Source: an uncultured Bacilli bacterium (lineage in GTDB: Bacteria; Bacillota_I; Bacilli_A; RF39; UBA660). Taken from it: DNA of 64,000 nt. The notes under the pieces were generated by a model. That model worked only from the letters and a program-made list of their open reading frames with translations. It was not told the origin of the DNA and searched no databases. A program made the position numbers and the translations under genes. Positions 25,119 through 64,000 of the stretch are shown piece after piece; position 1 is the stretch's first letter; each line of letters opens with the position of its first letter. Where the stretch lies: positions 121,110-185,109 of the forward strand of contig CATNCE010000001.1 of assembly GCA_950097225.1 (NCBI GenBank), written 5' to 3'.

Positions 25119-25224
25119 ACATGATCAACCCTGTCTATTTTATTCCATAATAATTATACAATAGAAAGTCAAATTAAGTCAACCGATTAATAGCTTTTTA
25201 GTTGGGTGCAAATAAAAAAGGAAA

Positions 25225-25524: not shown

Positions 25525-25601
25525 AGACATTCCCCTTTGATTGCTGTGTATTCTAGCACATTTTATGCAATTCGTCAAAAAAAGACTAGAATTTCTAGCC
25601 T

Positions 25602-28769: not shown

Positions 28770-28770
28770 T

Positions 28771-29331: not shown

Positions 29332-29441
29332 CTAATTTCACCTTGATTAATATTATATAATAAATGAATGTTATTTTCTAGATTTTTAGTTTGTAAAAAG
29401 CTTAAAAAACGAGTATAATTGACTCATAAGGGTGTGTGATT

Positions 29442-30038: not shown

Positions 30039-30086
30039 TTTATTTTCTTTTTTTATGCGGTATAATAATATAAAAGGGTGATGATT

Positions 30087-45236: not shown

Positions 45237-46931
45237 ATGTTGCTTATGAAAAAGAAAAGTATCATATATTTCTTTGTTATCGCACTTGTAATTGGATTTG
45301 CTAGTGTAACAGCAAACTTAATCATAAATAATACTTTAAATATTGGTTTTAATAATGCTTTCCTAGATAATGTTATATTTATAAATACTAAAACTGATGG
45401 AAAGGCATCAATTAGTTTAGATGGAAAAACAATCAGTTATGAAGCAAAAGAGTTAACTAGCATAAATGAAGGAAACACTTTAACATTTTGGATAAAAAAT
45501 GAAAATACTCAATATGATGTCGAAGCCATTATATCTTGTAGTATTGATAATGCATCAGAGAATATCAAAGATTTAGTAAGTATATCAGTTGAACCTAAAA
45601 GTTTTACTTTAGCAAGTAATGAAGTAAAAAGTGGAGAAGTCAGAATAGAAATGACTAGTGTTGTTACTGAAAGTATAGATGGAAACTTCACATGTGAACT
45701 AATAGCAACACCAGTAGAAAGAGAAGAAACAGGTGTAATAACTGATACATGTGTAAATGCATTAAATGGAGCTGATCCTGTAATAAATGGTGAGTTAATA
45801 CCTGTTGAATTAGACGATAATGGTATTGTTACATATTCAGATAAAGGTGAGTCTTGGTACAACTATTGTGAGCGAAAATGGGCCAATGCGGTGATATTAG
45901 TTGATAGTCCATCAAAGATTTATAATGTAGGTGATACAATCCAAGAGAGTGATATTGAATCATACTTCGTGTGGATACCAAGATATAGATACAAACTATT
46001 CCATACCAACCAAGCTGATGGGGTTACTGATAAATTATCTGAAAGTAATGCTCAAGAAATCGAGATTAAGTTTGAAGGTAAGGAAACACCTGTATCCGTT
46101 GGTACTCAAGACGGAGAATGGTTAACCCATCCCGCATTCACAAATTTCGATGTAAATGGCATATGGGTAGGAAAGTTCGAAACAGGGTATAAAGGAGCGA
46201 CAACTGCATCAGCTGCAGCCGTAAATTCAAGTGATCCAACGAAAATCCAGGTGAAGCCAAATGTATATTCATGGAGAGGTAGTACTGTGGGTAACTTCTT
46301 CAAAGCTATGTATAATTATAATCGTGGGTTGGATTCGCATATGATGAAAAATACTGAGTGGGGAGCAGTTGCATATCTATCACACTCAAAATACGGAATC
46401 AATACAGAAGTGCGAATCAATAATAATTCAAATTATTTAACTGGCTATGCGGCAAATGCAAAGGACGCTGGGTCGAGTACAACAACAAACCAATCATACA
46501 ACACTGAAACCGGATATTTAGCATCAACTACTGGTAATATAACTGGGATTTATGACATGTCTGGTGGGTCTTGGGAGTATGTAGCAGGCTACCGCGATGG
46601 AAAAGTAGGAAGTAGTGGACTAACATTAATTGAGATAAGAGATACATATAGTAGATATATAGATGTGTATGCAAATGATTCGTCGAAAACTACTTATAGT
46701 AAGCGAATACTAGGGGATGCGACGGGAGAGATGGGACCATTTCACGGAAGAGAACCGCAATATTATAATAACTGGTACAATGATTATTCGCACTTCGCAG
46801 AGGCTTCTTATCCTTGGTTTGCGCGTGGCGGCTCTCACGATCATACCTCTAATGCGGGCCAGTTCTACTTCAGCAGGGATACTGGTGGATCCTATAGTTA
46901 TGTTAGCGCGCGTCTCGTCTTATTGGGCTAA
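45237..46931 (+). CDS. Secreted adhesin: N-terminal pilin/TasA-like domain plus C-type-lectin (FGE-like) domain with variable C-terminus, copy 1
   Basis: Signal peptide ending IGFA; VWIPRY, HPAF, GIWVGKFE, YDMSGGSWEYV, PWFARGG..RLVL. Confidence 0.8.
   Translation: MLLMKKKSIIYFFVIALVIGFASVTANLIINNTLNIGFNNAFLDNVIFINTKTDGKASISLDGKTISYEAKELTSINEGNTLTFWIKNENTQYDVEAIISCSIDNASENIKDLVSISVEPKSFTLASNEVKSGEVRIEMTSVVTESIDGNFTCELIATPVEREETGVITDTCVNALNGADPVINGELIPVELDDNGIVTYSDKGESWYNYCERKWANAVILVDSPSKIYNVGDTIQESDIESYFVWIPRYRYKLFHTNQADGVTDKLSESNAQEIEIKFEGKETPVSVGTQDGEWLTHPAFTNFDVNGIWVGKFETGYKGATTASAAAVNSSDPTKIQVKPNVYSWRGSTVGNFFKAMYNYNRGLDSHMMKNTEWGAVAYLSHSKYGINTEVRINNNSNYLTGYAANAKDAGSSTTTNQSYNTETGYLASTTGNITGIYDMSGGSWEYVAGYRDGKVGSSGLTLIEIRDTYSRYIDVYANDSSKTTYSKRILGDATGEMGPFHGREPQYYNNWYNDYSHFAEASYPWFARGGSHDHTSNAGQFYFSRDTGGSYSYVSARLVLLG
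46221..46367 (+). repeat. 147-bp perfect direct repeat shared with 62638-62784
   Basis: Base-by-base identical from GTAAATTCAAGTGATCC to GAGTGGGGAGCA. Confidence 0.9.
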
Positions 46932-47020
46932 GATAATTCTGTGTAAAAATTGTGTAGATAATGATAAAAAGTGCAATGCAAACACTTGTACAAAAAAATG
47001 CTATATTACTAATAGGGTAG

Positions 47021-48280
47021 TCCGCTAAAGATATCTTATATAATTCAACTGATGAAGCCTGGGAGATCGATACAGTAGATGATGCATTAAATGATTTATA
47101 TAATGCATGTGTATTAGGAGAACTGCCCGGATATGGAGGGGCTATAGCAAGCGCACCATTAATAAATGGGGATTTAGTGCCAATAATAATAGCGAGTGAT
47201 GGAGTAGTAACAAAAGCAAATCCAAGTGAAAAATGGTATGATTATAATAATAAAGAATGGGCTAATGCAGTAATATTAGTAGATAATCCAAGTAAACAAT
47301 ATCGTATAGGAGATACAATTCAGGAAAGTGATATTGAATCATATTTTGTATGGATACCAAGATATAGATATAAGTTATTCCATGCTAATCAGGCAGATGG
47401 ATATGAAAATAAATTATCTGAGAGTATAGCACAGGAAATCGAGATTGAGTTTGAGAGTAAAGATACGCCAGTGTCAACAGGAAGTAAGAATGGAGAATGG
47501 TTAACGCATCCAGCTTTCACAAACTTTGATGTCAATGGCATCTGGGTAGGAAAATTTGAACTTGGTTATAAAGGAGCAACAAGTGCGTTTTCAGCTTGGG
47601 CAAACTCAAGTGATTCAACCAAAATCCAAATAAAGCCTAATGTATATCCGTGGAATGGTAATTCTATAGGCAATTATTTCAAGGCTATGTATAATTATAA
47701 ACGTGATTTAGACTCGCATATGATGAAAAATACCGAGTGGGGAGCAGTGGCTTATTTATCCCAGTCGAAATATGGGATAAATACAAAAATAGAAACTAAT
47801 AGTAATTCGGGATTTTTAACAGGGTATGCAACTGCAAATCATCCCTATAATACAGAAACTGGCTATTTGGCTTCAACTACTGACAATATAAGCGGGATTT
47901 ACGATATGTCTGGGGGAATTGATGAGTATGTAGCTGGATATATAGATGGAAATGTTGGAAATAGTGGTTTAACACTGGATGAAATAAGGAATACCTATAA
48001 TAAATATATAGATGTATATGCAAGTAGTAGTGCGGCAACGACATATAGCAATCGTATGCTAGGAGATGCAACCGGAGAGATGGGGCCATTCTATTATAAT
48101 GGATCTAATTATCGAAACAACTGGTATGATGATTATTCGTACTTTGTGGACTCTTCCTCCCCTTGGTTCCGTCGCGGCGGAGCTAGTTCAAGAGCACCTG
48201 GTTTATTTAATTTTCGGGGGAGGAGTACTATGGGAGGCGGTAGCGTAAGTGATTCTTCTCGTCTCGTTTTATTAGGATAG
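47021..48280 (+). pseudogene. C-type-lectin-fold adhesin copy 2, 5'-truncated (no signal peptide or ATG start)
   Basis: Frame open from 47021 (SAKDILYNSTDEAWEIDTVDDALNDLY...) after TAG 47018; the only in-frame start nearby is GTG 47177, inside the homologous domain. Confidence 0.65.
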
Positions 48281-48333
48281 TATGGTGATTTTGTGTGTAA
48301 GAATTATTTTATTTAAAATTTAATTTTGTATTG

Positions 48334-48365
48334 AGGATAGATGCTTGTTGGGTCTATCCTTTTTT
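48334..48365 (+). terminator. Rho-independent terminator
   Basis: AGGATAGAT/GTCTATCCT stem plus T-run. Confidence 0.75.
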
Positions 48366-48488
48366 GTGGAGTTGTTAACCACTATTTTGTTAGATTATGA
48401 TGAATTTTGGAAAAAATTGTAATGAAAAAAATAAAATAGTATGTTATAATTTCTATTATAGAGGATTCGCGATTAAGAGGTGTAATTC

Positions 48489-51400
48489 ATGGAGAAGAGA
48501 AGATTTGGAAAAATATGGCTTTGTGCAGCTATTTTAGTGAGTGTTTGTTTAGTTGCTAAATTAATTCCTAGTATGGCAAGGGTTAAAAATCGTGTTGCAA
48601 CAGAAATCTCTACAGTTTGGGATGGGAGTGTTGCTAATAGTTACCGAAGTGGGAAAGGGACTAAAAGTGATCCATATATTATAGCTACTGGTTCTGAACT
48701 TGCGTATTTTGGTAAAATGCTTGAAATAACTAATTATAGTGGGACTTATTTTGCTTTAAGTAATGATATTTTGCTAAATGAAGGAATATTTTCTTATGAT
48801 GATGGGCTTAAATATACTTTAAATAAGAGCTCTTTCTATCTTGATTCTAAGACTGGTAATTTTTATGATACTTCTGATTTATCAGGTGTAAAAATAGGAA
48901 CTGTTAATAGTTTTAAAACTTTGAAAAACTTCAAGGGACATTTTGATGGCAAGAGTTATACAATTTATGGAGCTTTTATAAATGGGGAAAATGATGAAAT
49001 TGGTTTATTTAGTAATCTTGAGGGAAATATTACTGATTTATATGTAACTAATGCATCTATTAATGAAGGTAATGTTACTGGTTTGGTAACAAGTGCTAAA
49101 AATGCGACTTTAACAAATGTGGTTTTTAATGGTGTTGTCATTGGAAAAAATGAGGATAGAGTACTTGATAAGAGTATTATGTTAGATGATTATATTGTTG
49201 ATGGGAGTGCCAATATTCTTGTTGATGATGCGGAATTAAGAGGTTTCTATGGGGTGCGAAATTTAACTTTATCAGGTAAATGTGATGCTGATTTTCTTAT
49301 TGATGGGGAAAATATTTCTTGTGTATCTGGTCAATTTGAAACAGGGTTAAATCCTTTGAAGTCTAATTTTGAAGTTGCTTCTAGTGTAATTAATAATCTT
49401 TTAGAATTGAAAGTTAATGTTAGTTCTGTAGGAAATATTGCCGCAGGGATTGTTGGTTATGGTGAAAATATAACGTTAAAAAATGTTGTTAATAAGGCAT
49501 TTGTAAAAGGCAATAGTGAAGGTGCTGGCTTAGTTGGTGTTGCTGTTAATAAGTTAGTGATATCTAATAGTTATAATAATGGGAATGTCGATACTTTAGG
49601 GAATCATGGAGCATTAGTTGGCCGTGTATATTCGTTAAGTGCGCTTTCTAGTATAAATAATAGTTATAATGATGGGGACGACATTGGACTTGTTGGGATG
49701 GTTGTTGGTTCTCAAGATTATCTTAGTATAACGAATTCTTTTGATATTGTTAGTAATGGTAATCTTATTCGTGATATTCAAGAGTCAGTAGTTAATTTAA
49801 ATGGTGTTTATGGTTTACAAACCAATAAGTATTTGGATGGAGTAACAACAGGGAATGTTGTTAAAATCTCTAAGGCTCAGTTGATGAGCAGAGACTATCT
49901 TATCAATAACTTGCATTTTTCTGAATTTGTCGATTTAGAAGACACAGCTACTAATTCTAATAATGTGTGGATTTATGAAGATGGATATTTGCCAATTTTA
50001 TATGTTGATGATATTAAGAATCCTTTTGTAACTCTTAATTTAGGGAATTATTCGTGGAATAACTTAGGATTTGATGATAAAAAGATTAATTTCTCATCTT
50101 CAGTTGCATTTGCAATAAATGATGCTAATGACACAAGACCAATAAAAGAAAGTTATTATTATATAAGTAAAAGTGCACAACCTTTAACAAAGACTCAAAT
50201 TGATGCAATTGATACGTGGACTAAGTATGATAATATTGTATCTATCAGTGAAGATGGTTTTTATGTTTTATATGTAAAAGCATATGACTATGACGGCAAC
50301 GAAGTAATTATAAATTCGGATGTCTTGGTTGTTGATACTTTTGGATCTGATGTTTTAATAACTTTGGGAGAGCGTAAGTGGAGCTTATTTAGTGAAGATT
50401 TGGACTCGGCTTTTATAGATGATAATGCTAAAGTGGAAGTAAGTGCTACTGATGATTTATCAGGGGTTAAATATGTCCAGTATTATGTGACTGATGCTAA
50501 GTTAAACAATGATGAGTTAGATAATTTAAATTGGAGTAATTATGAAGAAGCAATTAGCATTGATAAGCTTGGAACTTATGTGATTTATGTTCGCGTAACT
50601 GATAATGCTTTAAATGAAACTATAATTAATACAGATTATATTATATATGGAGGGTATACCTTGAATAAGGTAGTAGTAGCTTCAGAGGAAATTGCTGATG
50701 CTAGTTTCCAAATTAGTTCTGGGTCTAAACTTGAATATAATTTTAGTTATCAAGATCATCACTATTTCGATGATGGGGATCATCATAATGTTGTATTTAA
50801 TAGAAATGTACCTAATGGGACTAAGCTTATTTTGATGGATAATATAAGTAAGAAAGTTTATTCATATATCGTTAGTAGTGATAGTTTAGTTATTCCTTTT
50901 ACTAGCTTTAGTGTATTAGGTAAAGGCAATATGTATAAGAACTTCCAAGAGAAAACAGGAGACATTGATAAAGAAGATTATACAGTTGTAGTTGATTTTT
51001 CTGATACTATAAAGCCTAGTATAAGTGATTTAACAGTATCTATTGATGTTCGTGATAAGAATGCTTATGTGTCGCGTTCAACGATAAAGAATACATTAAA
51101 AACGCTTAGCGTTATAGAAAATGCTGATGCTAATGTTACATTAAGAAGCACTTATGTGGGAGATGGAATAAAGTATAATGTTGATTCTTTAGAGTTGATT
51201 GACTTATCTTTAGGTCTTCAAAATGTTACCAATGAATTTGGAATCATTAGAGATTCGAGTATTCTGTCAAAGCAGATGGGCATTGCTATTAAACTCGTTA
51301 ATAAAGATGGAGTGACTATCGATAAAAGTAATATGCGCAATATCGAGTTTAAAATTGATGGAGAGTATTATTCTCCTGATTCAGATGGGGTTACGCGAAT

Positions 51401-51980
51401 TAAGATTGGTGATGCATCTGCGTCCGTTTCAAAAACTTTGATGGTCTTAACTTCGGCTAGTAATGCGACACTTTCTGCTGGTGAATATTATTTGTCAGTA
51501 ACGCCAATACTTGCTTATGATGGTATGTATGGTGGAATAAGTACTAGTGAAAATATAGTTATTCCAGTGATTTTTGATAATGCTTTAGATAATAATGAAA
51601 CGTATTCATTTAAAATTGAAAGTGAATCTGATTATAGAGTTTTATATAAAAAAGATGGTGTTGTCTCTTTAAATTATGAAGTTATAAGTGATAACTCTAT
51701 TAAGAATTCGAACGTACGCGTGATGCTATATAAAAAAGATAAATTGACAGCTTATGATCAAAAATATTCTTTAATAGATTTAAATGATTATTTAGTTAAT
51801 CCACTTAATGCTGTAACAGCAAATGTCTATTATGCTTTGACCGATTTTAGCTCAGGTAATAAATTTAGTTTAAATATTGATTTAGCGCGTTTAGAAGCAA
51901 ATGGTTATGAGATTGTCTTTGCTCTTTATGATGATAGTAAAAAAGTGGGAATGATTAAAGAGAAGTTCATTGTTAGATAG
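48489..51980 (+). CDS. Large secreted protein: GLUG-type beta-helix plus tandem Ig-like repeats
   Basis: Signal peptide; WDG..GKGTKSDPYII, FKGHFDG..YTI, IGLF, GLVG repeats; two Y.LYVKA.D..GN..IINSD-type repeats. Confidence 0.75.
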   Translation: MEKRRFGKIWLCAAILVSVCLVAKLIPSMARVKNRVATEISTVWDGSVANSYRSGKGTKSDPYIIATGSELAYFGKMLEITNYSGTYFALSNDILLNEGIFSYDDGLKYTLNKSSFYLDSKTGNFYDTSDLSGVKIGTVNSFKTLKNFKGHFDGKSYTIYGAFINGENDEIGLFSNLEGNITDLYVTNASINEGNVTGLVTSAKNATLTNVVFNGVVIGKNEDRVLDKSIMLDDYIVDGSANILVDDAELRGFYGVRNLTLSGKCDADFLIDGENISCVSGQFETGLNPLKSNFEVASSVINNLLELKVNVSSVGNIAAGIVGYGENITLKNVVNKAFVKGNSEGAGLVGVAVNKLVISNSYNNGNVDTLGNHGALVGRVYSLSALSSINNSYNDGDDIGLVGMVVGSQDYLSITNSFDIVSNGNLIRDIQESVVNLNGVYGLQTNKYLDGVTTGNVVKISKAQLMSRDYLINNLHFSEFVDLEDTATNSNNVWIYEDGYLPILYVDDIKNPFVTLNLGNYSWNNLGFDDKKINFSSSVAFAINDANDTRPIKESYYYISKSAQPLTKTQIDAIDTWTKYDNIVSISEDGFYVLYVKAYDYDGNEVIINSDVLVVDTFGSDVLITLGERKWSLFSEDLDSAFIDDNAKVEVSATDDLSGVKYVQYYVTDAKLNNDELDNLNWSNYEEAISIDKLGTYVIYVRVTDNALNETIINTDYIIYGGYTLNKVVVASEEIADASFQISSGSKLEYNFSYQDHHYFDDGDHHNVVFNRNVPNGTKLILMDNISKKVYSYIVSSDSLVIPFTSFSVLGKGNMYKNFQEKTGDIDKEDYTVVVDFSDTIKPSISDLTVSIDVRDKNAYVSRSTIKNTLKTLSVIENADANVTLRSTYVGDGIKYNVDSLELIDLSLGLQNVTNEFGIIRDSSILSKQMGIAIKLVNKDGVTIDKSNMRNIEFKIDGEYYSPDSDGVTRIKIGDASASVSKTLMVLTSASNATLSAGEYYLSVTPILAYDGMYGGISTSENIVIPVIFDNALDNNETYSFKIESESDYRVLYKKDGVVSLNYEVISDNSIKNSNVRVMLYKKDKLTAYDQKYSLIDLNDYLVNPLNAVTANVYYALTDFSSGNKFSLNIDLARLEANGYEIVFALYDDSKKVGMIKEKFIVR

Positions 51981-51993
51981 GAGTAGTGGTATT

Positions 51994-52533
51994 ATGAAAA
52001 GTAAAATATTAGTAGGTTTGTTTATTGCTGCTGCTATTCTATTTAGCACGGGACTTACATATTCGATTTTTACATCATCGGCAACAATGAGTACTAATAA
52101 TCAAAAGATTGCCAAATTTATTTTTAATGCAGAACAGACGGATGAATTTTTAGTTCCTATAAATGACTTAGTTCCTAATACGTTTAAAGAGTTTGAATTT
52201 CAAGTAAGTAATAATTCTAATGGCCAAAATACCAATGTTAATTTAAATTATCAGATTACTATTAAGACGTTTCATTTTATGCCGTTAGTTATTGAACTTT
52301 ATAAGGTAGGAGTGGAAGATGCTATAATGGTTTGTGATGAATCGTATACACGTAATACTGATAATGAATTAGTGTGTAATTCTTCTTATCAAGAGATGCG
52401 TTATGATAAAGAAGTAATAGATGATTATAAGTTAAAGGTGACATTTCCTTCCGAATATAATGGGGATGAATATGCGTCTTTAGTAGATTATATTGATCTT
52501 AGTATTGCTAGCTTCCAGAAAGTAGATAAGTAG
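51994..52533 (+). CDS. Secreted TasA/camelysin-like filament subunit (SipW-type signal peptide)
   Basis: Hydrophobic leader ending GLTYS|IF; DLVPN..FEFQVSN. Confidence 0.6.
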   Translation: MKSKILVGLFIAAAILFSTGLTYSIFTSSATMSTNNQKIAKFIFNAEQTDEFLVPINDLVPNTFKEFEFQVSNNSNGQNTNVNLNYQITIKTFHFMPLVIELYKVGVEDAIMVCDESYTRNTDNELVCNSSYQEMRYDKEVIDDYKLKVTFPSEYNGDEYASLVDYIDLSIASFQKVDK

Positions 52534-52536
52534 GCG

Positions 52537-53433
52537 ATGATTATGAAAAAAAGTTTAAAGATATCGATAATAATTATTGTTGGGATAGTAGCATTAATTG
52601 CGACTCAATATGGTTTATCCTATGCTAAATATGCATATAATTCTGTTTGGAATTATTATTTAAAGTCAAAGAAATTTTATTTTGATAGTGATTCACTTGG
52701 CGTTGATATTAAAACCCATGTTGATAAGTTGTGGAATGGGGATAAAGTATATTTTAATATTAGGAATAGCTTAAATGATTTAGAGATAAGTGAAAGCGAT
52801 ATTGAGTATAAAGTTACTTGTGAAGTTAAGAATAGTTCTAATAATGCTGTTTGTGATCTTATGGATACAGGTACTAATACTTATACAGGCGTTTTATCAG
52901 CTTATAAGAAATGTGTGAACAAGACAGGAGATAATGTCGATGTTTCTTCATTTGATAGGAGTACATGTGAGATAAGTGGTTATGAGTGGGATATAAGTGT
53001 TGCTAATCGGGAGTTGTATTTTACCCTTTTGAGTGATAGTGGAGAAGTTGAGACTGCTGATGTGGTAATTACAGTTGTCAGTACAAGTCCTTATAAAAAA
53101 ACTTTAAAGGGAGAATATATTTTGAATCGCGATAAAAATATGCTTGGACGTATTATGCATGATTATAATGATTTTGGGCTAGAGGGACAGTTAGTGTTAA
53201 CTAATACTTTTTCTGAGGCTAAGTGTTTGATGATTAATTTTGATTCTACGAAGTTAGTTGTTGATCACAACGATAAGAAGATTAAAAAGTATGCCACTGA
53301 TAGTGATGGATATATTAACGAAATTGTTGTTATGGTAGATGGTGTATCTAGTGAGATTATTCCTTTTTATGATCGAGTATTAAATGATTATAGTAAAGAT
53401 CATTTTACGATTGTGGAAAGTAATGAGTGTTAG
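52537..53433 (+). CDS. Secreted protein with SipW-type signal peptide
   Basis: Leader ending GLSYA|KY; FYFDSD. Confidence 0.6.
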   Translation: MIMKKSLKISIIIIVGIVALIATQYGLSYAKYAYNSVWNYYLKSKKFYFDSDSLGVDIKTHVDKLWNGDKVYFNIRNSLNDLEISESDIEYKVTCEVKNSSNNAVCDLMDTGTNTYTGVLSAYKKCVNKTGDNVDVSSFDRSTCEISGYEWDISVANRELYFTLLSDSGEVETADVVITVVSTSPYKKTLKGEYILNRDKNMLGRIMHDYNDFGLEGQLVLTNTFSEAKCLMINFDSTKLVVDHNDKKIKKYATDSDGYINEIVVMVDGVSSEIIPFYDRVLNDYSKDHFTIVESNEC

Positions 53434-53494
53434 TTGCTATTTGATAGCTTCTATGCTATGATTGGTATGATAGTAGAAGTAGGAGGTAAAGAAA

Positions 53495-54016
53495 ATGTGG
53501 GAGAAAGTTAAGAGTATATTAGTTACAATATTCTGTTTTATATATTTTTCGTTTGCATTAAGTATGACAGTGCTATTATTAAATTTCAATGACTATGGAG
53601 TTACTCAATTTGGGGAGACTTCAATTGTTGTTTTAAAAGAAAAGGTTAATTTTGAGGGATTTAAAAAAGGACAGGTTGTAATAGTTGAATCAGAGTCTGT
53701 TAGCAATTATCAGGTTGGCGATATCGTGTTTACTTATCGCGTTATCAATAAAATACCGCATATTGAAGTTGGCAAAGTTGGGGAAGTATATTTAAATGAG
53801 CGAGCTATTGCTTATGAAAATGGTGATACTTATTCAGAAGAATATATTATTGGAAAACCGACAAAGACTTATAATAAAATGGGAACATTTTTAGCAGTAA
53901 TTCAGTCTAAATGGGGATTTTTGTTTATTATTTTAGTTCCATGTTTCTTATTATTTATTTATCAAATATTTGCTTTGGTAGTAGAAATAAAATATGGTTC
54001 AGAAAGTACAGTTTAA
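53495..54016 (+). CDS. Degenerate SipW-like (S26B) membrane protein
   Basis: TM / beta domain (..VGDIVFTY..IIGK) / TM architecture of SipW, but no GSM or THR motif. Confidence 0.6.
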   Translation: MWEKVKSILVTIFCFIYFSFALSMTVLLLNFNDYGVTQFGETSIVVLKEKVNFEGFKKGQVVIVESESVSNYQVGDIVFTYRVINKIPHIEVGKVGEVYLNERAIAYENGDTYSEEYIIGKPTKTYNKMGTFLAVIQSKWGFLFIILVPCFLLFIYQIFALVVEIKYGSESTV

Positions 54017-54121
54017 GAGCTACTATGCTCTTTTTTATTTGGCATCAATGCATAAATTGGGATTGTTGGAAGGAAGTTTTTTATTGTTCTGATTTTTTGT
54101 TAGAAAGTTTGGCTAAAAATA

Positions 54122-54150
54122 TTGTTTAATTTTGTCGAATATGATAGAAT
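54122..54150 (+). promoter_or_regulatory. Internal sigma-A promoter with Spo0A box in the spacer
   Basis: TTGTTT-17nt-TAGAAT with TG; TGTCGAA at 54133-54139. Confidence 0.55.
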
Positions 54151-54193
54151 CAGTTATAGTAGAAGAGTAGTATGAAAATAGGAGTGTGTTATT

Positions 54194-56260: not shown

Positions 56261-57783
56261 ATACATTTATAAGATTCTTTTATGAATTTATATCAGTTTT
56301 TTTAAACGGACTTGGGATGATTTTTAAAGGGCTTGTTGGCGGAATAAAGAAAATGTTTAGCATAAGTGATTATGCTAAGGTAATCGATAGCTATAATGGT
56401 AGTTTTAATGGTTTAGAGAAGTTCTTTGTCTTTCTATCTGTCGCTTTTTTAGTCTTAATTGTTCTTTTAATAATTTTCTTAATTGTTTTATTTGTTCGCA
56501 AATTAATAAGAAGAAGTATGAATAACATGAGCAAAGAGGAATTATTAGAGGAAATTGCTAATTTGAATGATAAAGTTCGCAAACTCATGAAGGAAAAAGA
56601 AGAAATTATGGCGATGAAGGTTTCTCAGTTAGGATTAAATCCTGATGCAGATGAAGAAGAAAATCCTGAAGGGGTAGTAGAAGAGGAAGATCCAGCTCAA
56701 GCGGGAATAAGATTTCCTAAGTTGGTGCAGTTAGATGAGGACTTTAAGAATTTTCATCCGCGCAATTACGAAAATGCTTTTACTCTTGAAGAGTTGATTG
56801 ATGATTTTCGCTGTTATTCAGCATCGCAATTGAAACTATATTATGATTTTAATATATTACGACCTTTCTTTGCTGGATTGGCTTGTAGCAAATTGATAAT
56901 TTTACAAGGTATATCAGGAACAGGTAAAACCTCACTTGCTTATGCATGGGGAAAGTTTGTTGGAAATGATTCTTATGTTGCATCTGTTGAACCATCATGG
57001 CGTGATAAATCAGACTTTTTAGGATATTTTAATGAATTTACCAAGAAGTTTAATGAGACTTCAGCTCTTGGCGAGATTTATGCTGCTAGTTTTGATGATG
57101 ATGTGCATACTATTATTCTTGATGAGATGAATTTAGCGCGTGTAGAATACTATTTTGCTGATTTATTATCAATATTAGAGATGCCATCGAGAGATGAATG
57201 GGTTGTTGATTTAGTGCCAAATGCTTGGCCAAAAGATCCTAAAAAATTAGAACGTGGTAAGTTAAGGTTGCCAGGGAATTTATGGTATATTGGTACAATT
57301 AACAATGATGACTCGACATTTATGGTTACTGATAAAGTGTATGACCGTGCTATGCCAATCGATATTAATACGAAGATTAGTGCGTTTGAATGTCGTGAAC
57401 AAGAATGTGTTAATGTTAATTCGACTTATTTAGAAAATTTATTTATTGATGCGATTGAAAAGCATCCATTATCTGATAAGGGCGAAAAACAAGTTAATGA
57501 TATTGATGATTATGTAATTAAGCATTTTAGAATATCTTTTGGTAATCGTATCATGAAACAATTAGGAGTATTTGCTCCTGTATATGTTGCTTGTGGTGGA
57601 AAAGAGATAGAGGCAATTGATTATTTCGTTGCTAAGAAAATTTTACGTAAATTTGATCAATTAAGTGTTGCTTTAATTCGCGATGAAATTGATCCATTTA
57701 TAACATTCTTGAATAAGAATTTTGGTAAAAACACTATGAAGGAATGTATTGAGTATTTAGAAAGATTGAAGAAGAGTATTTAA
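56257..57783 (+). CDS. Membrane-anchored McrB-family AAA+ GTPase (NxD type)
   Basis: TM plus coiled coil; GISGTGKT, V.PSW.D..DFLGY.N, LDEMNLARVEYYFAD.LS.LE, GTINNDDST, KVYDRA. Confidence 0.85.
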   Translation: MNTFIRFFYEFISVFLNGLGMIFKGLVGGIKKMFSISDYAKVIDSYNGSFNGLEKFFVFLSVAFLVLIVLLIIFLIVLFVRKLIRRSMNNMSKEELLEEIANLNDKVRKLMKEKEEIMAMKVSQLGLNPDADEEENPEGVVEEEDPAQAGIRFPKLVQLDEDFKNFHPRNYENAFTLEELIDDFRCYSASQLKLYYDFNILRPFFAGLACSKLIILQGISGTGKTSLAYAWGKFVGNDSYVASVEPSWRDKSDFLGYFNEFTKKFNETSALGEIYAASFDDDVHTIILDEMNLARVEYYFADLLSILEMPSRDEWVVDLVPNAWPKDPKKLERGKLRLPGNLWYIGTINNDDSTFMVTDKVYDRAMPIDINTKISAFECREQECVNVNSTYLENLFIDAIEKHPLSDKGEKQVNDIDDYVIKHFRISFGNRIMKQLGVFAPVYVACGGKEIEAIDYFVAKKILRKFDQLSVALIRDEIDPFITFLNKNFGKNTMKECIEYLERLKKSI

Positions 57784-57796
57784 TTGGGGTGATAAT

Positions 57797-58924
57797 GTGG
57801 CAAGCAAAGATATTATAGAGGTTAGTAATGATGTCCTTGAAACATCTACTAAATTTTTACACGATGTAGAGTCAAATGTTTATTTTGACTCGCGTCTTGC
57901 TAGCGATTTATTTGATACAGAATGGCTTGAAAGATTAGAATATGCTTGCCCCTATATCGATATTATCGTTAGAAATCCTAAACTAGCTTTAATAAAAGAG
58001 GAAAATGTTGTCTTAGTTGAAAAAGCCAAGAAAATTGATGTTACAAGTGTAAAGGATTTAGCTAAGCATACTGAGCGGATAAGCCGTTATGATCGTGGTA
58101 CTGATAGTGTTGAACCTAAGAAGATATTAGATATTCGCAATGAGGAGACGTTTAATATTTATGAGAATAGATTCTTGTATACTGTTGTTAAGATGACTAT
58201 CGCGTTTGTTTCTAATAAGGAGAGGATGCTTAAAAAACTTGATCTTAAAGATTATAAGCTTTTAGAGTATTCGTCAAAGACAACTACGTTATCGGAAAAA
58301 GTTAATATTCAAGTTAAGGTTAATTCTGAATCTATTCCTAAAGGAAAGATGGATAAAGACGTTCTTGATAAAGTTAAGGAAATAAAGAAGCGTATAAAGA
58401 GAATAAAGGATTTTCTTTTAAGTTGGGAAAGAAGCCCAATGATGAAGGAAATTGAGGCCGCACATATATCTTTAATGAAACCGCCTATTCGTAAGACTAA
58501 CGTTATTTTGAAAAACCCAAATTTCCAGGTTGCTGTTAAACTTTGGGAGTATTTATATAAGTTTAGTGAAAATAAAGAGGAATCTGGAGATAATACTTCG
58601 GCACGAGCAGGTAATGTCTTGTTAGGATTTTTAGATCATTCTTTTTTAGTAGATTACTTTGTAATGAACTCAATGGCAGTATCTAAAAGAGAACAGAAGA
58701 AAAAAATGGCTACATATGCTGTCTTATTATTAAGCGAAGAGATTAGGAGAATTATGGCTCTTTTAAAGAATATGGGCTTAGATATTACGGATGAGGAATT
58801 GATGCGTTTAGTGGCAAAAGAACTTCACGGCAATAATGAACGTCTTGTTGGAGTGTCTGATGTAAAAAAGAAATTTAAGAGTGCTATGAGTGAATATTTG
58901 GAAAGGACACAAGATGTCTTGTAA
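57797..58924 (+). CDS. DUF2357 (McrC N-terminal-like) protein without evident nuclease domain
   Basis: EETFNIYENRF and PPIRKTNVILKNPNF...LW; directly after the McrB-like gene. Confidence 0.7.
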   Translation: MASKDIIEVSNDVLETSTKFLHDVESNVYFDSRLASDLFDTEWLERLEYACPYIDIIVRNPKLALIKEENVVLVEKAKKIDVTSVKDLAKHTERISRYDRGTDSVEPKKILDIRNEETFNIYENRFLYTVVKMTIAFVSNKERMLKKLDLKDYKLLEYSSKTTTLSEKVNIQVKVNSESIPKGKMDKDVLDKVKEIKKRIKRIKDFLLSWERSPMMKEIEAAHISLMKPPIRKTNVILKNPNFQVAVKLWEYLYKFSENKEESGDNTSARAGNVLLGFLDHSFLVDYFVMNSMAVSKREQKKKMATYAVLLLSEEIRRIMALLKNMGLDITDEELMRLVAKELHGNNERLVGVSDVKKKFKSAMSEYLERTQDVL

Positions 58925-58932
58925 AATAATAT

Positions 58933-59499
58933 ATGAAGAAACTTAGAGAGAATAAAATTTTTAAAGTTATTAAAACTTTAGTTAATGTGAGTATTGCTGT
59001 TGTTTTGATTTCCTTCTTTGTAGTTGTGTGTTTGCAGCGTTTTAGTGGAAATAAATTAGCTATATTTAATTTCCGAATGTTTACTGTTGCATCAGGTAGT
59101 ATGCAACCTAAATATGTAGTTGGAGATGTTTTGTTGTCAAAACAAATTGATACTAAAAAGATTAAAGTGGGCGATACGATTAGCTATTTGGGAACTTCTG
59201 GGGATTTTCGTGATAAGGTCATAACGCATGAAGTTATTGCAATAGATAACTTAGATAACGGAAAAAGAGTGTTTCATACTAAAGGTATTGCCAATATAAT
59301 TGAGGATCCAGTTGTCAATGAAGAACAGGTATATGGAGTAGTAATTGGTAAAGCTAAGTTGCTGTCATGGATATATAAAATGATGTCGACAAAATATGGT
59401 ATATTTATAATTGTTATACCACTTCTATATATATTTGGGTCAGAGTTTCTATCTTTTTTATTAGAAAAAGAAGAGAAAAAGAGAAATATAGTTAAATGA
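58933..59499 (+). CDS. sipW: Signal peptidase I, SipW type
   Basis: VASGSMQP, VGD, ITHEV, TKGIAN..D; two TMs. Confidence 0.85.
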   Translation: MKKLRENKIFKVIKTLVNVSIAVVLISFFVVVCLQRFSGNKLAIFNFRMFTVASGSMQPKYVVGDVLLSKQIDTKKIKVGDTISYLGTSGDFRDKVITHEVIAIDNLDNGKRVFHTKGIANIIEDPVVNEEQVYGVVIGKAKLLSWIYKMMSTKYGIFIIVIPLLYIFGSEFLSFLLEKEEKKRNIVK

Positions 59500-59518
59500 G
59501 TGAGCTAGGAGGTAAATA

Positions 59519-60739
59519 ATGAATCGAAAGAAGAGAATATTGCTGAAGATGAATATTGTTTCGCTGTTCTTTATAGCTTTATCATTCGTTTCTATTACAC
59601 TAGCTTGGTTTGCCTATAGTGGTCTTGCAAAAGTTGAAACTGACGTTAATGTTAAAGCTTGGTATATTGAATTTCAAAAGGATAATAGTGCTACATCTAA
59701 TGATATAATTATTTCTTTAGATGATATTTATCCAGGAATGGAGCCGTCAAGTGAGAAGATTGATATAAAGAATTTTGGAGATTCTGATGCTATGGTTACG
59801 TACCAAATTACTTCGGCTCGAATATTGGATGAAGAGATCTCCGTTAGTGATGAGGACATGGTTAGTTTAATAGATAGATTATCGCATGATTATCCTTTTC
59901 ATATAAATGTTGGACTTTCTTCTTCTTTAGCAGTTAGAGAAGTTGGAAGTAGTGAACTTAATGTTTCGGTTTCTTGGCCAATGGATTCAGATAACGATGA
60001 GGCAGATAGCCAGTGGGGTGTTGCAGCTTTCAAGTTTAAAAAACAAGAAGAGGAAAAGAAGGCAGCAGATCCTTCATATCAAATTAGAAGTCCATTACGT
60101 ATAACAATTAATATGCGAGCAGAGCAATTTACTGATGATGTTAATTCTTTAGATCCTAAATATAATTTAGGAAACACTTTATTGTTTGATCCAGTTAACA
60201 ATGTTCGTTGTTCTAAGATAAGTACCACTTGTCTTAAGATGTATGTTATTGACACTGCTAATAAGGTAGGAGACAAGACAGTTACTTTAATGCCAGATTT
60301 GTATAAGGCCTATGGGCCAAGTAGATATGATAATCGTTTAACTACTTTAAATAATGCTGTAGCAAATTGGCAAGTTCCTACTGATGAATTAAGTGTTGAG
60401 CATTTGCTGCGAATAATCTCCTCAGATGTTGTTAAATCAACTCTTTCTAGAGAGAAGCTTTCTGATTCAATAATTGGTAGCATGCATTTAGATGAGCGAG
60501 TTTATGAAGAAATAGATAAGGCTAAAGATGGAAAAGGATATTTTACTTTTGATAATACTCGAAATAAAATGCTAGTTAGAAATGGTTGTTATTGGTTAAA
60601 GAATGAATATAGCTCTACTTCAGGATTTGCTGTTCAGAAGTACAATCAGATAAAAACGGAAATTTTAGGTCTTGATAAAATGAGCAGTTGTAATGTCGTT
60701 CCTATTATAAGTGTTGATAAAAAGGTGCTAGAACAATAA
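59519..60739 (+). CDS. SipW-dependent TasA/camelysin-like protein with additional C-terminal domain
   Basis: Leader ending SITLA|WF; IYPG..IKNFGD; C-terminal YWL..VVPII. Confidence 0.65.
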   Translation: MNRKKRILLKMNIVSLFFIALSFVSITLAWFAYSGLAKVETDVNVKAWYIEFQKDNSATSNDIIISLDDIYPGMEPSSEKIDIKNFGDSDAMVTYQITSARILDEEISVSDEDMVSLIDRLSHDYPFHINVGLSSSLAVREVGSSELNVSVSWPMDSDNDEADSQWGVAAFKFKKQEEEKKAADPSYQIRSPLRITINMRAEQFTDDVNSLDPKYNLGNTLLFDPVNNVRCSKISTTCLKMYVIDTANKVGDKTVTLMPDLYKAYGPSRYDNRLTTLNNAVANWQVPTDELSVEHLLRIISSDVVKSTLSREKLSDSIIGSMHLDERVYEEIDKAKDGKGYFTFDNTRNKMLVRNGCYWLKNEYSSTSGFAVQKYNQIKTEILGLDKMSSCNVVPIISVDKKVLEQ

Positions 60740-60740
60740 G

Positions 60741-60769
60741 AAAACTCTTGTGTATTCCAAGAGTTTTTT
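60741..60769 (+). terminator. Terminator closing the SipW/McrB operon
   Basis: AAAACTCTTG/CAAGAGTTTTTT. Confidence 0.8.
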
Positions 60770-60809
60770 GTTGACTAAATTAGGATAAATAAAAAAAGGA
60801 TTTAATCCT

Positions 60810-61424
60810 TTAATTAGTTTTTTGTGTAAATTCTAGAGAAGCCTTTATTTGCAATGTAGTATCTTCGCTAGCAGCTTTTATTCCGATTTCTGTATCTTTT
60901 TCATCATTCATTGTTTCGTTTTCGTTTTCAAACCATTCAAAGTAGATTCTAATAGTAAATGGTTCATAAGCATTTTCATTTATATTTAATGATCCTGTTA
61001 TTTGATTATCAGTAATATTTAATGTTTGAATGTTGTCTCCTTCTTGATGAGTAGTATTTAATAGTGCATATTTTGTTATCATTAAATCAGGTATTGCTTC
61101 GTTTAGTATTTCTAGTGATATTTTATAATTAAAAGATAGTTCTGTGTTTGATGGATCAATATCGATATCAAAATAGCCTTTTGATGATGGAGCAATCGTG
61201 TTTTTAGCAACATTAGTATTTTCTTCGATCACAGGTGTCAGTTCGATTGACGTCGTGTTTTCATTGGTTATATCATTTGAGTTTACTAGTATTTGCCATT
61301 TGGTAAATTTTACTTCAATGTTTCCACTAGTTCCTGCTACATAACGTGAATAGGTGTTACTCATTAGTCCTAACGTAAGTGAAAGGGACATGAGTGCTAG
61401 CAATATTTTAAATTTCTTTTTCAT
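60810..61424 (-). CDS. TasA-like filament subunit (SipW-type signal peptide)
   Basis: Leader ending SNTYS|RY, N-terminal strand ..KWQILVN, IAPSSKGYFDIDID, C-terminal LEFTQ. Confidence 0.65.
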   Translation of the reverse strand: MKKKFKILLALMSLSLTLGLMSNTYSRYVAGTSGNIEVKFTKWQILVNSNDITNENTTSIELTPVIEENTNVAKNTIAPSSKGYFDIDIDPSNTELSFNYKISLEILNEAIPDLMITKYALLNTTHQEGDNIQTLNITDNQITGSLNINENAYEPFTIRIYFEWFENENETMNDEKDTEIGIKAASEDTTLQIKASLEFTQKTN

Positions 61425-61656
61425 TATTATTTTACCTCTCTTAATTCTAAAATAATTATATCGTTTGGCATATTTTGTGTCAATCTATGTCGTAAAAAAG
61501 ATGTAATTGTCGTGTAAATAATTGTAAACAAGGAATAATATGGAGGAGTAGTTTATTGTTGATGCTTTTGGTAATATCTTTTTTTGACAAAATACTACAC
61601 TATAATCGTTGTAAACAAAATGGATTTTGTGATAAAATGTTACCAGAATAGGATGC

Positions 61657-63342
61657 ATGCTTATGAAGAAGAAAAGTTTACTAATTTTAAGTATATTGTT
61701 ACTTGTAATCGGATTTGCTACTGTAACAACTAACTTAATAATCAATAATACTTTAAACATCGGTTTTAATAATGCCTTCTTAGATAATGTTATATTCATA
61801 AATACTAAAACTGATGGTAAGGCATCAATTAGTTTAAATGGAAAAACAATCAGTTATGAAGCAAAAGAATTAACTAGTATAAATGAAGAAAATATATTAA
61901 CATTTTGGATAAAGAATGAAAATACTCAGTATGATGTTGAAGCTACTATATCTTGTAGCATAGACAATGTATCAGAAAATATCAAAGATTTAGTAAGTAT
62001 ATCAGTTGAGCCTAAAAACTTCACTTTAGCAAGTAATGAAGTAAAAAGTGGAGAGGTACGAATAGAAATGACTAGTGTTGTTACTGAAAGTATAGATGGG
62101 AATTTCACCTGTGAATTAATAGCAACACCAGTAGAAAGAGAAGAAACAGGTGTAATAACTGATACATGTGTCAATGCATTAAATGGAGCTGAGCCTGTAA
62201 TAAATGGTGAATTAATACCAGTTGAATTAGACAACAATGGAGTTGTCACATACTCTGATAAAAGTGAATCTTGGTATAACTATTGTGAACAAAAATGGGC
62301 TAATGCCATAATACTAGTTGATAATCCAAGTAAGCAATACAATGTAGGCGATGTTATAATTGAAGATGATATTGAATCATACTTTGTGTGGATCCCAAGA
62401 TATAGATATAAGTTATTTCATACTAACCAAGCTGATGGAACAGAAGCTAAGTTATCAGAAAGTATAGCCCAAGAAATCGAGATTGAGTTTGAGAGTAAAG
62501 ACACACAAGCATCAACTGGAAGTAAGGATGGCGAATGGTTAACACATCCTGCCTTCACAAACTTTGATGTAAATGGAATATGGGTAGGCAAATTTGAAGA
62601 AGGTTATAAAGGAGCAACAAATGCATCTTCAGCAGCTGTAAATTCAAGTGATCCAACGAAAATCCAGGTGAAGCCAAATGTATATTCATGGAGAGGTAGT
62701 ACTGTGGGTAACTTCTTCAAAGCTATGTATAATTATAATCGTGGGTTGGATTCGCATATGATGAAAAATACTGAGTGGGGAGCATTAGCATATTTAAGTC
62801 ATTCAAAATATGGAATAAATGATGAAGTAAGAATAAATAATAATTCAAACTATTTAACAGGATATGCAGCAACTACCAGAGATTCAAGTGCAAGTACATC
62901 AAATAATCAACCATATAATACAGAAACAGGATACTTAGCAAGTACAACTGGTAACATTACGGGAATTTATGATATGTCTGGTGGTTCGTGGGAGTACGTT
63001 GCTGGATATCGTAGTAATACAGTTGGCGAATCAGGTTTAACGGTATCGGAAATAAATAGTACATACCAAAAATATATTGATATTTATCCATCGAATTCTT
63101 CGGCCATTTCATATAGTAAAAGAATACTAGGAGATGCGACGGGAGAAACGGGCCCTTTTTATCAGAGTGGTAGTTGGTTTTATAATAATTGGTATATGAA
63201 TTTTTCACGTTTTGTAGAGTCGAGTAAACCATGGTTTCATCGTGGGGACTCTTTAGGAGAGAAGGCAGGGATTTTTGCTTTTGAGAGACATACTGGTAAT
63301 GCATATAGCGGTAACGCGGCTCGCCTCGTACTTCTAGGATAA
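61657..63342 (+). CDS. Secreted C-type-lectin-fold adhesin with variable C-terminus, copy 3
   Basis: Close paralogue of 45237-46931 over its full length; differs mainly in the last ~60 aa. Confidence 0.8.
   Translation: MLMKKKSLLILSILLLVIGFATVTTNLIINNTLNIGFNNAFLDNVIFINTKTDGKASISLNGKTISYEAKELTSINEENILTFWIKNENTQYDVEATISCSIDNVSENIKDLVSISVEPKNFTLASNEVKSGEVRIEMTSVVTESIDGNFTCELIATPVEREETGVITDTCVNALNGAEPVINGELIPVELDNNGVVTYSDKSESWYNYCEQKWANAIILVDNPSKQYNVGDVIIEDDIESYFVWIPRYRYKLFHTNQADGTEAKLSESIAQEIEIEFESKDTQASTGSKDGEWLTHPAFTNFDVNGIWVGKFEEGYKGATNASSAAVNSSDPTKIQVKPNVYSWRGSTVGNFFKAMYNYNRGLDSHMMKNTEWGALAYLSHSKYGINDEVRINNNSNYLTGYAATTRDSSASTSNNQPYNTETGYLASTTGNITGIYDMSGGSWEYVAGYRSNTVGESGLTVSEINSTYQKYIDIYPSNSSAISYSKRILGDATGETGPFYQSGSWFYNNWYMNFSRFVESSKPWFHRGDSLGEKAGIFAFERHTGNAYSGNAARLVLLG
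62638..62784 (+). repeat. Second copy of the 147-bp perfect repeat
   Basis: Identical to 46221-46367. Confidence 0.9.
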
Positions 63343-63495
63343 ATCTGAGCTACTAAAGTAGGTAAAATTTTTCCTATTTTTTTATAGCTAATCGTTTTAT
63401 TATTATTTTTAATTATTAGAAATATCGTTAAAAAATAATTTATTTTTGTTGCTTTTTTTGGCAAAATATGGCCTGCGTTTTTTGCTTGCGAATTT

Positions 63496-63535
63496 TGTCG
63501 AATATTGTTGACAAGGAAAAGTTCTATGATATAAT
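63496..63535 (+). promoter_or_regulatory. Consensus sigma-A promoter with adjacent Spo0A box
   Basis: TGTCGAA 63496-63502; TTGACA 63508-63513, 16 nt, TG-TATAAT 63530-63535. Confidence 0.65.
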
Positions 63536-63617
63536 TGTATTATATTGTAGAGAGTATCAGATATGTGTACATGGTAATGTATTAATGTATACTAAACAAT
63601 ACAAAGTGGGTGAAGAG

Positions 63618-64000
63618 ATGGAGAATAGAAGCGTGTACTTGAGTTCAGAAAAATTCAAGCGAGAGAGATGGATAAAAAAAGTTATCATCTTGGCTCTATT
63701 CTTCATTTTTTTAATGCTCATATTAATGTATTTTGTTTTTGGTATTGTTTATAATAATGGGAATTTTAGCGTAACGCTAGATCAAAATTTGTACTTCGAT
63801 AAGGGCCTCATTATTTATGATGATCCTGTTTATAAAGTGTATAGAACGGAACTTTATGCAGAAGCTCCAAGCCAATTTGACAATGTCTCACATACATGGC
63901 TTCCAAAAGACATTGATGAATTAGGCGGTGGTTCTCATAATGGCAAAAATTATCTGGCTTATACATTTTATGTAGAGAATCAGGGTACTGATGTGTCTGA
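63618..64000 (+). CDS. Membrane-anchored protein, 3'-truncated by window edge (probably continues the filament locus)
   Basis: Open frame MENRSV..TM..GGSHNGKNYLAYTFYVENQG to the window end; not in the ORF track. Confidence 0.75.
   Translation, partial: MENRSVYLSSEKFKRERWIKKVIILALFFIFLMLILMYFVFGIVYNNGNFSVTLDQNLYFDKGLIIYDDPVYKVYRTELYAEAPSQFDNVSHTWLPKDIDELGGGSHNGKNYLAYTFYVENQGTDVS

Follow-up and report, generated by a model that had tools for sequence, protein, structure and literature searches.

An McrB-type GTPase and an McrC-like partner are embedded among SipW/Sec11-type signal peptidases and exported proteins in a compact locus of an uncultured Bacilli bacterium (RF39, UBA660). The locus lies in a stretch of 64,000 nucleotides (hereafter the window; GenBank assembly GCA_950097225.1, contig CATNCE010000001.1, positions 121,110 to 185,109 of the forward strand), where the cluster occupies positions 48489-61424 when a gene on the opposite strand is included. 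It encodes two catalytically intact SipW/Sec11-type peptidases, one dead copy, the McrB-type GTPase, its DUF2357 partner and four proteins with SipW-type leaders. The initial annotation of the window had presented it as a candidate new system. The locus is not a new system: it is a member of a class that has already been named and is so far without experimental study. We are highly confident that this class is CoCoPALM, as the annotation had guessed. What is new here is the definition of an exported cargo family linked to the GTPase, AWF/x282, and of its co-occurrence with the GTPase at the level of genomes; for the window itself, the value of the analysis is confirmatory.

The GTPase pair and its signal peptidases

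The mcrB gene (56257-57783, + strand) encodes a protein of 508 amino acids (aa) that, as a single sequence, gave no useful match in Pfam, NCBIfam or the PDB. A family profile made from an alignment of 29 homologues has E. coli McrB (6hz4) as its best match in the PDB (E 4.3e-5), and AAA_5 is matched in 26 of the 29 members. The Walker A motif GISGTGKTS, the Walker B residues D289-E290 and the signature N349-x-D351-D352 are invariant in 29/29 sequences. The GTPase domain lies at about residues 190-508. The N-terminal 130 residues include one or more hydrophobic segments and a transmembrane (TM) helix at about residues 65-90, after which come basic residues and a short coiled coil with a heptad-like pattern. 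This TM and heptad-like segment is kept in 28 of the 29 aligned sequences. The protein is predicted from its sequence to be a cytoplasmic McrB-type GTPase, tethered to the membrane by its N-terminal TM and coiled-coil segment.

The mcrB gene is followed on the same strand by a gene for an McrC-like protein of 375 aa (57797-58924), with a DUF2357 N-domain (E 1.1e-10). DUF2357 was matched in 16 of 27 McrC-like homologues, and the longer homologues carry K/E-rich helical tails. No nuclease family was matched in any of the 27 at E ≤ 0.01, in a scan at the level of sequence families. The GTPase is thus predicted to be paired with a nuclease-less McrC-like protein. E. coli McrBC (6hz4, 6ut6, 7vsr) has in common with this pair the homologous GTPase core (E 4.3e-5 for the family profile) and the McrC N-domain partner. 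It differs in that the pair described here has no DNA-binding N-domain and no PD-(D/E)xK nuclease, is membrane-anchored and lies in an export operon. Canonical McrBC type IV restriction was considered and rejected, given that the sequence-family scan found a nuclease in 0/27 McrC homologues and that the N-terminus of McrB is a TM segment plus coiled coil.

The genes from 48489 to 60739 form a tight + strand cluster with intergenic gaps of -11 to +177 nt in the open reading frame (ORF) listing, in which the start of mcrB overlaps the stop of the peptidase gene sip688 by 4 nt. Three genes of the cluster encode SipW-like proteins. Two of them, sip688 (54194-56260, + strand, 688 aa) and sip188 (58933-59499, + strand, 188 aa), score 73.1 bits (E 2.2e-20) and 69.7 bits (E 2.5e-19) against TIGR02228, both above the curated cut-off of 51.85 bits. 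The product of sip188 also aligns with human SEC11C (E 2.1e-5; SEC11A was aligned as well), with the Ser of SGSM..P, the His and the downstream Asp in register. The third, sip173 (53495-54016, + strand, 173 aa), is a degenerate SipW-like pseudo-peptidase that matches TIGR02228 below the cut-off (18.7 bits, E 1.3e-3) and the Sip-family hidden Markov model at E 3.6e-40. In an alignment of 58 Sip sequences (the three window copies and 55 from related loci), the catalytic Ser (SGSM) and His (THR/THE) are kept in nearly all, including sip688 and sip188, and are lost in a subgroup formed by sip173 and five relatives. The initial annotation had counted three SipW paralogues; two stand as peptidases, and the third is a weak match that has lost both catalytic residues. 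A terminator-like hairpin lies 3' of sip173 at 54015-54032 (+ strand; consensus match only).

The 688-aa peptidase is a fusion. Its SipW-type peptidase domain (about residues 15-160), with two TM segments, is followed by a K/E-rich linker, a helical domain and an EAL-fold domain (about residues 493-675). The cytoplasmic C-terminal 358 residues were modelled with AF2 (pLDDT 86.8) as the helical domain and the EAL fold. Residues 163-345 of this tail model superpose on the EAL domain 5m1t with Z 14.3 (174 residues aligned, root-mean-square deviation 2.9 A), and the 50 top rows of the fold search are EAL domains without exception. No match to Pfam EAL (PF00563) was found in the tail, and among 18 homologues no acidic column is invariant, the only invariant columns being L, Y and Y; the domain is therefore called degenerate. 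Positions that we read from the sequence as equivalent to the EAL and DDFG motifs are variable. The modelled tail thus has an EAL fold that appears to be without the catalytic and metal-binding residues of EAL phosphodiesterases, and the EAL-fused peptidase of the initial annotation holds at the level of the fold. FimX (4ag0) and LapD (3pjt) share this fold with it (Z 13.6-13.8) and are likewise cases of a non-catalytic EAL domain attached to pilus or adhesin control. They differ in that identity to the tail is only 13% (FimX) and 11% (LapD) and that no conserved ligand-binding residues are identifiable in it; a role as receptor of cyclic di-GMP (c-di-GMP) is putative here. In five f1-type relatives (L040-L044), a gene of its own encodes the EAL-fold domain, immediately upstream of mcrB. 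The host genome, at a completeness of 92%, holds one GGDEF gene and no canonical EAL gene. A complex prediction of McrB residues 135-508 with the C-terminal domain of sip688 scored 0.00 in both runs and returned no verdict.

CoCoPALM was named in one paragraph (section 7) by Bell, Sahakyan, Makarova, Wolf and Koonin (eLife 2024, PMC11090510), where its analysis is deferred to a later paper. The hallmarks given in that section are a GTPase of the NxD branch, its fusion to an FtsB-like TM/coiled-coil segment, the presence of coiled coils in McrB as well as in McrC and an association with the signal peptidase family (PMC11090510). NxD is described there as a modified form of the NxxD signature, in most cases with an E or a second D behind it; the peptidases are labelled SipA-like pilus assembly factors, with an HHpred match to 4N31, and the FtsB link of the N-terminus has an HHpred E-value of 1.2 (PMC11090510). 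The window has the McrB-family core, the N-terminal TM and heptad-like segment, the association with signal peptidases and the DUF2357 McrC homologue, and this architecture fits section 7. Like the systems outlined there, it combines a TM and coiled-coil McrB-type GTPase, a nuclease-less DUF2357 McrC and proteins of the signal peptidase family in Bacillota. The signature motif is ambiguous: N349-[K/N]-D351-D352, present in 29/29 sequences, fits NxD plus a second D, while a gapless HMMER alignment to the N-T-A-D of E. coli pairs N349 with N and D352 with D and so reads as NxxD. The window differs from the description in that section on three counts. Here two of the three peptidases keep Ser and His and score as SipW/Sec11-type enzymes, whereas the paper speaks of SipA-like proteins; the section gives no cargo, whereas exported families of the AWF/x282 and sub204 types are defined here; and the lineage of the window adds a dead peptidase and the EAL-fold tail (PMC11090510). 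Beyond Bell et al. and its preprint, we found no literature on a CoCoPALM-type McrBC/SipW system.

Exported proteins and their co-occurrence with the GTPase

The leaders of the exported proteins end in a motif of the form small-x-small/aromatic, the slash marking the cleavage site, as in TYS/RY, TLA/WF and STYA/WF. Three genes for such proteins lie on the + strand: sub187 (51970-52533, 187 aa, leader GLTYS/IF), sub298 (52537-53433, 298 aa, leader LSYA/KY) and sub406 (59519-60739, 406 aa, leader ITLA/WF). The fourth, sub204 (60810-61424, 204 aa, leader NTYS/RY), is convergent on the - strand. All four leaders listed in the initial annotation are present in the sequence, as are the tight cluster, the TM-anchored GTPase and the DUF2357 partner that it had described. 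A sigma-70 promoter with 12/12 consensus positions stands ahead of sub204 at 61483-61455 (- strand), and a terminator-like hairpin lies between the convergent sub406 and sub204 at 60767-60741 (- strand); both are consensus matches only.

The AF2 model of sub204 (pLDDT 83.3) is a beta-sandwich in which the first ~20 mature residues are unstructured. Its top Foldseek match is the TasA fibre 8aur (E 4.3e-4, TMq 0.34), followed by cannulae, Hyper2 tubes, archaeal bundling pili and chaperone-usher pilins. As a lead from the ESM Atlas, the nearest named cluster is Peptidase_M73 (59% of members, score 0.94). The model can safely be described as a pilin-like sandwich. A TasA-like fold, which the initial annotation had proposed for the subunits, is weakly supported and not established: the top Foldseek match of the one modelled subunit speaks for it, and the other fold comparisons and family searches described below do not.

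The N-domain of sub406 (~200 aa), which is followed by a C-terminal extension, aligns with the sub204 family in hhalign over 182 columns (91.7% probability, E 7.9e-7), and sub187 aligns with it over 167 columns (81.6% probability, E 1.1e-5). By these sequence alignments, sub187 is a probable paralogue of sub204. With sub298, which is kept in eight f1-type loci, and with the AWF family, hhalign aligned only the leaders to the sub204 family, so that a single superfamily for all subunits is not shown. The sub204-family profile matched no PDB chain at E ≤ 10.

The locus runs off the window, as had been noted, and extends ~4 kb past its end. The gene x282, for a TM-anchored AWF paralogue of 232-282 aa, is called from 63468 (+ strand), and its 5' part reaches the end of the window at 64000; on the contig, the rest of x282 is followed by three genes for subunits with STYA/WF leaders, x282 and these three together spanning C1:184577-189312. 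A second 12/12 sigma-70 consensus promoter (63508-63535, + strand; consensus match only) sits inside the long ORF call of x282, and the true start is therefore probably 63618. The x282 family aligns with the AWF family over 204 columns in hhalign (98.1% probability, E 8e-14). Since x282 is TM-anchored and is without the A/WF cleavage motif, it is a candidate for an uncleaved membrane anchor or base. The AWF and x282 families (L079 together with 26 and 18 homologues) share a conserved acidic motif at the C-terminus, W-[LI]-E-G-x-D-x-D-[CN]. Fibres of the cannulae type, which figure among the fold matches of sub204, are reported to polymerise with calcium coordination (PMC12518558); a metal site in the AWF family would be a guess.

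In order to cover many families, 40 related loci were picked by hand; they are not a random sample, and one of them (L066) gave no McrB-like ORF and enters no tally. Thirty-one of these loci hold an McrB homologue of 447-572 aa. In 27 of the 31, an McrC-like gene lies within 8 kb together with one or more Sip genes and one or more genes of the AWF, x282 or sub204 family, and the synteny of sipW, mcrB and the DUF2357 gene proposed in the initial annotation therefore recurs elsewhere. A further locus (L048) has Sip and AWF genes and no McrC-like gene within 8 kb of either McrB copy, its stretch ending just downstream of the second copy. For 30 of 35 window-type McrB homologues, one or more Sip genes are found within 8 kb. 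In 21 of 34 cases in the related loci, the McrC-like gene has a Sip gene as its immediate 3' neighbour, and in 20 of these 21 the gap measures -65 to +32 nt. In gene order, and often by overlap of reading frames, the GTPase pair is hard-wired to SipW/Sec11-type peptidases that retain Ser and His.

Homologues of the GTPase fall into at least 8000 protein clusters at 90% identity. The best 120 clusters, the window's own aside, are 69-84% identical to it and nearly all of the same length; across many metagenome clusters the identity is 70-82%. In a phylum-level sample the GTPase was found in 88 of 399 genomes, with 7/7 genomes in family f19, 11/11 in f25, 24/30 in f13, 22/42 in f8 and 7/16 in f1, and genomes that have it often hold two or three copies. 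An McrB-like gene and an AWF gene occur together in 61 genomes of the sample of 399-400, AWF alone in 4 and an McrB-like gene alone in 27; these are plain counts, as related genomes are not independent. The AWF family is thus almost confined to GTPase-bearing genomes (61/65). The four genomes with AWF only are represented by three weak matches and one match at a contig end. Judged by E-values and ORF lengths, most of the 27 genomes with an McrB-like gene only appear to hold membrane variants of ~610 aa or ~905 aa that have other partners. A sample of 41 genomes of relatives gave both genes in 5, McrB-like only in 1, AWF only in 1 and neither in 34, and both discordant genomes are fragmented metagenome-assembled genomes.

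Two longer kinds of McrB-like protein were seen among the related loci. Those of ~604-620 aa, with 3-5 TM segments (L065, L068, L069, L073, L074 and L078), adjoin Sip-like proteins of 330-355 aa (3 TM), proteins of ~530 aa (8-10 TM) and proteins of 786-823 aa. Those of ~905 aa (L075 and L076) have 10 TM segments and a 521-aa McrC-like partner, with no Sip gene. As regards the window-type GTPase, the window copy is 65% identical to those of two other genera, one in a different family (G030) and one in its own family (G346), and 54-57% identical to the copies found within its genus. Only the two distant loci L039 and L077 are colinear with it in gene order. This pattern of identity and gene order hints at two subtypes or at lateral transfer.

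Possible roles of the GTPase pair

The reading that best fits the anatomy, the conservation and the absence of nuclease matches is that of a nucleoside triphosphate (NTP)-dependent McrBC-like module coupled to the biogenesis of a surface fibre, and we regard the case for it as evenly balanced. The motor or regulator role proposed for the GTPase in the initial annotation was likewise an inference. According to this reading, the peptidases would cleave the subunit leaders on the outer face of the membrane, and the mature beta-sandwich subunits would assemble into a fibre on the cell surface, perhaps through donor-strand exchange in which their unstructured N-termini serve as donors, with the uncleaved paralogue x282 as membrane anchor or base. 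On the cytoplasmic face, an McrB hexamer with McrC could use GTP hydrolysis to drive or gate the processing and hand-over of subunits, acting via the TM segments and cytoplasmic tails of the peptidases, and the degenerate EAL-fold tail of one peptidase may provide a c-di-GMP input in this lineage. A more specific form of the idea is possible, though we hold it as tentative: CoCoPALM loci might encode an unrecognised Gram-positive pilus machine, in which a membrane-tethered, McrBC-derived GTPase ring polymerises SipW-processed AWF/x282 subunits of the donor-strand type, extrudes them through the wall or retracts them. Such a machine would be functionally analogous to PilD plus PilB of type IV pili although built from unrelated parts, and in this lineage the tail of the peptidase would tune it as a degenerate EAL-fold receptor for c-di-GMP.

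Among the closest known systems are the operons tapA-sipW-tasA of B. subtilis and sipW-tasA-calY of B. cereus, reportedly described as fibre operons by Boehning et al. 2022 and Roske et al. 2023. These also place a dedicated SipW-type peptidase beside exported beta-sandwich subunits whose leaders are cleaved after a small residue, with an accessory paralogue that may act as nucleator or anchor, and it is the TasA fibre that is the top Foldseek match of sub204. In contrast, the known operons are not known to contain an NTPase, the subunits of the window are not Peptidase_M73, and there are two to three peptidase paralogues and at least eight leader-bearing proteins here. In the sipW-bsaA matrix pilin system of C. 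perfringens, passage of the SipW-processed polymer through the wall is proposed to depend on an NTPase machine (PMC11580942). This is a precedent for a SipW-processed polymer with a proposed NTPase-driven machine; that machine is, however, a type IV pilus system and not McrBC-like, and BsaA polymerises by isopeptide bonds (PMC11580942).

Several observations weigh against the coupling of the GTPase to fibre biogenesis. All function is inferred here from gene context, the system being known from its genes alone. Known TasA-type fibres, to our knowledge, need no NTPase, and we know of no precedent for one in assembly of the TasA type. The likeness of sub204 to TasA is also generic: in VIA it scores Z 5.8 over 146 residues, a value that many pilin and Ig domains reach equally, a wide fold search against 48,161 chains gave nothing at Z ≥ 8 (best Z 6.8), and the best VIA score of sub204 overall is Z 7.1. 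No subunit matches Peptidase_M73 (PF12389) at E ≤ 5 and no protein of the genome does so at E ≤ 0.1, while the AWF family, the most conserved of the cargo, has no sequence match in Pfam or NCBIfam beyond noise and none in the PDB at E ≤ 10. In three loci (L055, L056 and L059), McrB-McrC pairs stand without a nearby Sip or subunit gene, in genomes that also have a full locus. The GTPase is patchy in its own genus, where it occurs in 5 of 21 genomes and was not found in nine with a completeness of 91% or more, and it matches the PADLOC candidate anti-phage family PDC-M26A (E 1.3e-38). CoCoNuTs, the closest named relatives of the GTPase, are predicted to be conflict systems (PMC11090510). Finally, two more SipW loci, neither of them with McrBC, are present in this genome. 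One (C1:2666-16933) holds two Sip genes, proteins with TYA/KY and TYS/KY leaders and proteins of 1099, 1619 and 691 aa; the other (C16:12438-15638) holds one Sip gene, a 187-aa protein with an ATFA/YF leader and a paralogue of the lec family described below. The GTPase is therefore not needed for SipW-type export generally, and is tied specifically to AWF-type cargo.

These additional SipW loci would also suit a rather unlikely alternative, in which McrBC is an add-on layer of control. The pair would then be no assembly motor but would serve in regulation or quality control of the peptidases, as an AAA+ ring that either gates the activity of SipW or pulls jammed precursors or cleaved leaders out of the membrane, in response to cytoplasmic GTP or, here, to c-di-GMP via the EAL-fold tail. 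The synteny and gene overlaps fit such a regulator as they fit a fibre module, a cytoplasmic, sensor-like EAL-fold domain sits on the peptidase whose gene is directly upstream of, and overlaps, mcrB, and the dead peptidase paralogue is conserved in f1-type loci. The EAL-fold domain, however, accompanies only 7 of the 35 window-type McrB homologues examined and so cannot explain the class, and it is without conserved acidic or ligand-binding residues; moreover, we know of no signal peptidase that is regulated by an AAA+ ring. That the adjacency is one of chance, a conventional McrBC restriction cassette having landed in a sipW operon, has nothing but the family names in its favour and is scarcely credible. 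It is refuted by an arrangement seen again in 27 of 31 loci across many genera and families, by the N-terminus of McrB, which is a TM/coiled-coil segment and not a DNA reader, and by an McrC without nuclease.

The patchiness in the genus and the PADLOC match speak for a conflict or defence system, that is, a CoCoNuT-like McrBC sensor-effector coupled to envelope proteins, for instance for phage sensing at a surface receptor or for surface remodelling upon infection. In keeping with this, the window GTPase is nearer to other genera (65%) than to its own (54-57%), and Bell et al. assign CoCoPALM GTPases to the NxD branch, among CoCoNuT-like systems (PMC11090510). We nevertheless judge a defence role improbable. 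Sequence-family scans of the locus and of the 27 McrC homologues gave no nuclease, HEPN, methyltransferase or other effector, and McrB is without a DNA- or RNA-binding domain. The system is near-universal in several families, multicopy and highly conserved in sequence, which is unusual for defence genes, and its neighbours are housekeeping genes (uvrC, relA and tig) with no defence island.

If the GTPase does drive or gate fibre biogenesis, no earlier case would be known in which TasA-like or SipW-dependent fibres are assembled by an NTP-dependent route, and the motor of a restriction enzyme would clearly have been taken into the service of envelope biogenesis. Among gut Bacilli with small genomes the system is very common, and the surface structure could therefore matter for interactions with the host or the community.

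Flanking genes and genomic surroundings

The + strand cluster is headed by a gene for a surface protein of 1163 aa (48489-51980, + strand), with an N-terminal TM or signal segment and an OmpL47-type Ig-like domain at residues 645-711 (NCBIfam, E 4.5e-11), in addition to a weak Big_7 match (E 0.011). The initial annotation had described it as a GLUG/Ig protein; the Ig-like part stands, while GLUG repeats gave no Pfam match even at E ≤ 5. Among the 40 related loci, homologues were found only in L039, L077 and L044, and only in the closest relatives does the gene head the cluster.

Three genes of a family that we call lec (45237-46931, 47177-48280 and 61657-63342) flank the cluster. They had been taken for lectin-fold adhesins and for variable tips of the filament. 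That they are paralogues which flank the cluster is correct, but the lectin fold rests on sub-threshold matches to FGE-sulfatase (E 0.012-0.017). The family has 73 ORF matches in the genome, 28 of them of at least 500 aa, on 20 contigs (the others being C2, C3, C5-C8, C10, C12, C13, C16, C18, C20, C22, C23, C25, C26, C30, C32 and C35), amounting to ~67 kb or ~4% of 1.61 Mb, and several copies sit at contig ends. The proteins are ~560 aa long, with a conserved N-terminal ~200 aa that begins with a hydrophobic '...VIGFASVTANLIINNTL' segment and a variable C-terminal part, the one with the sub-threshold likeness to FGE-sulfatase. No lec homologue was found in the 40 related loci; where sub204 directly adjoins the x282/AWF genes in relatives, a lec gene (lec561) lies in between in the window. 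As a genome-dispersed multigene family that is not conserved with the system, lec was rejected as a component of it, and the idea of lectin tips falls with it. From its sequences, the family looks like a variable repertoire of surface proteins.

Family scans of the locus proteins matched no sortase, methylase or nuclease, in agreement with the initial annotation; five sortases are encoded elsewhere in the genome, outside the locus. The genes upstream of the cluster are housekeeping genes, namely uvrC, relA/spoT, trigger factor (tig), a class A penicillin-binding protein and SpoIIP. The host, whose genome assembly comprises 1.61 Mb in 58 contigs at ~31% GC, is therefore a walled bacterium with a small genome. 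Type IV pilus genes are also found in the window, at 22323-30704, and include a 931-aa T2SSE-family ATPase fusion (- strand) and a pilin with an N-methyl motif at 30078-30704; surface-filament loci of at least three kinds are therefore present in this organism.

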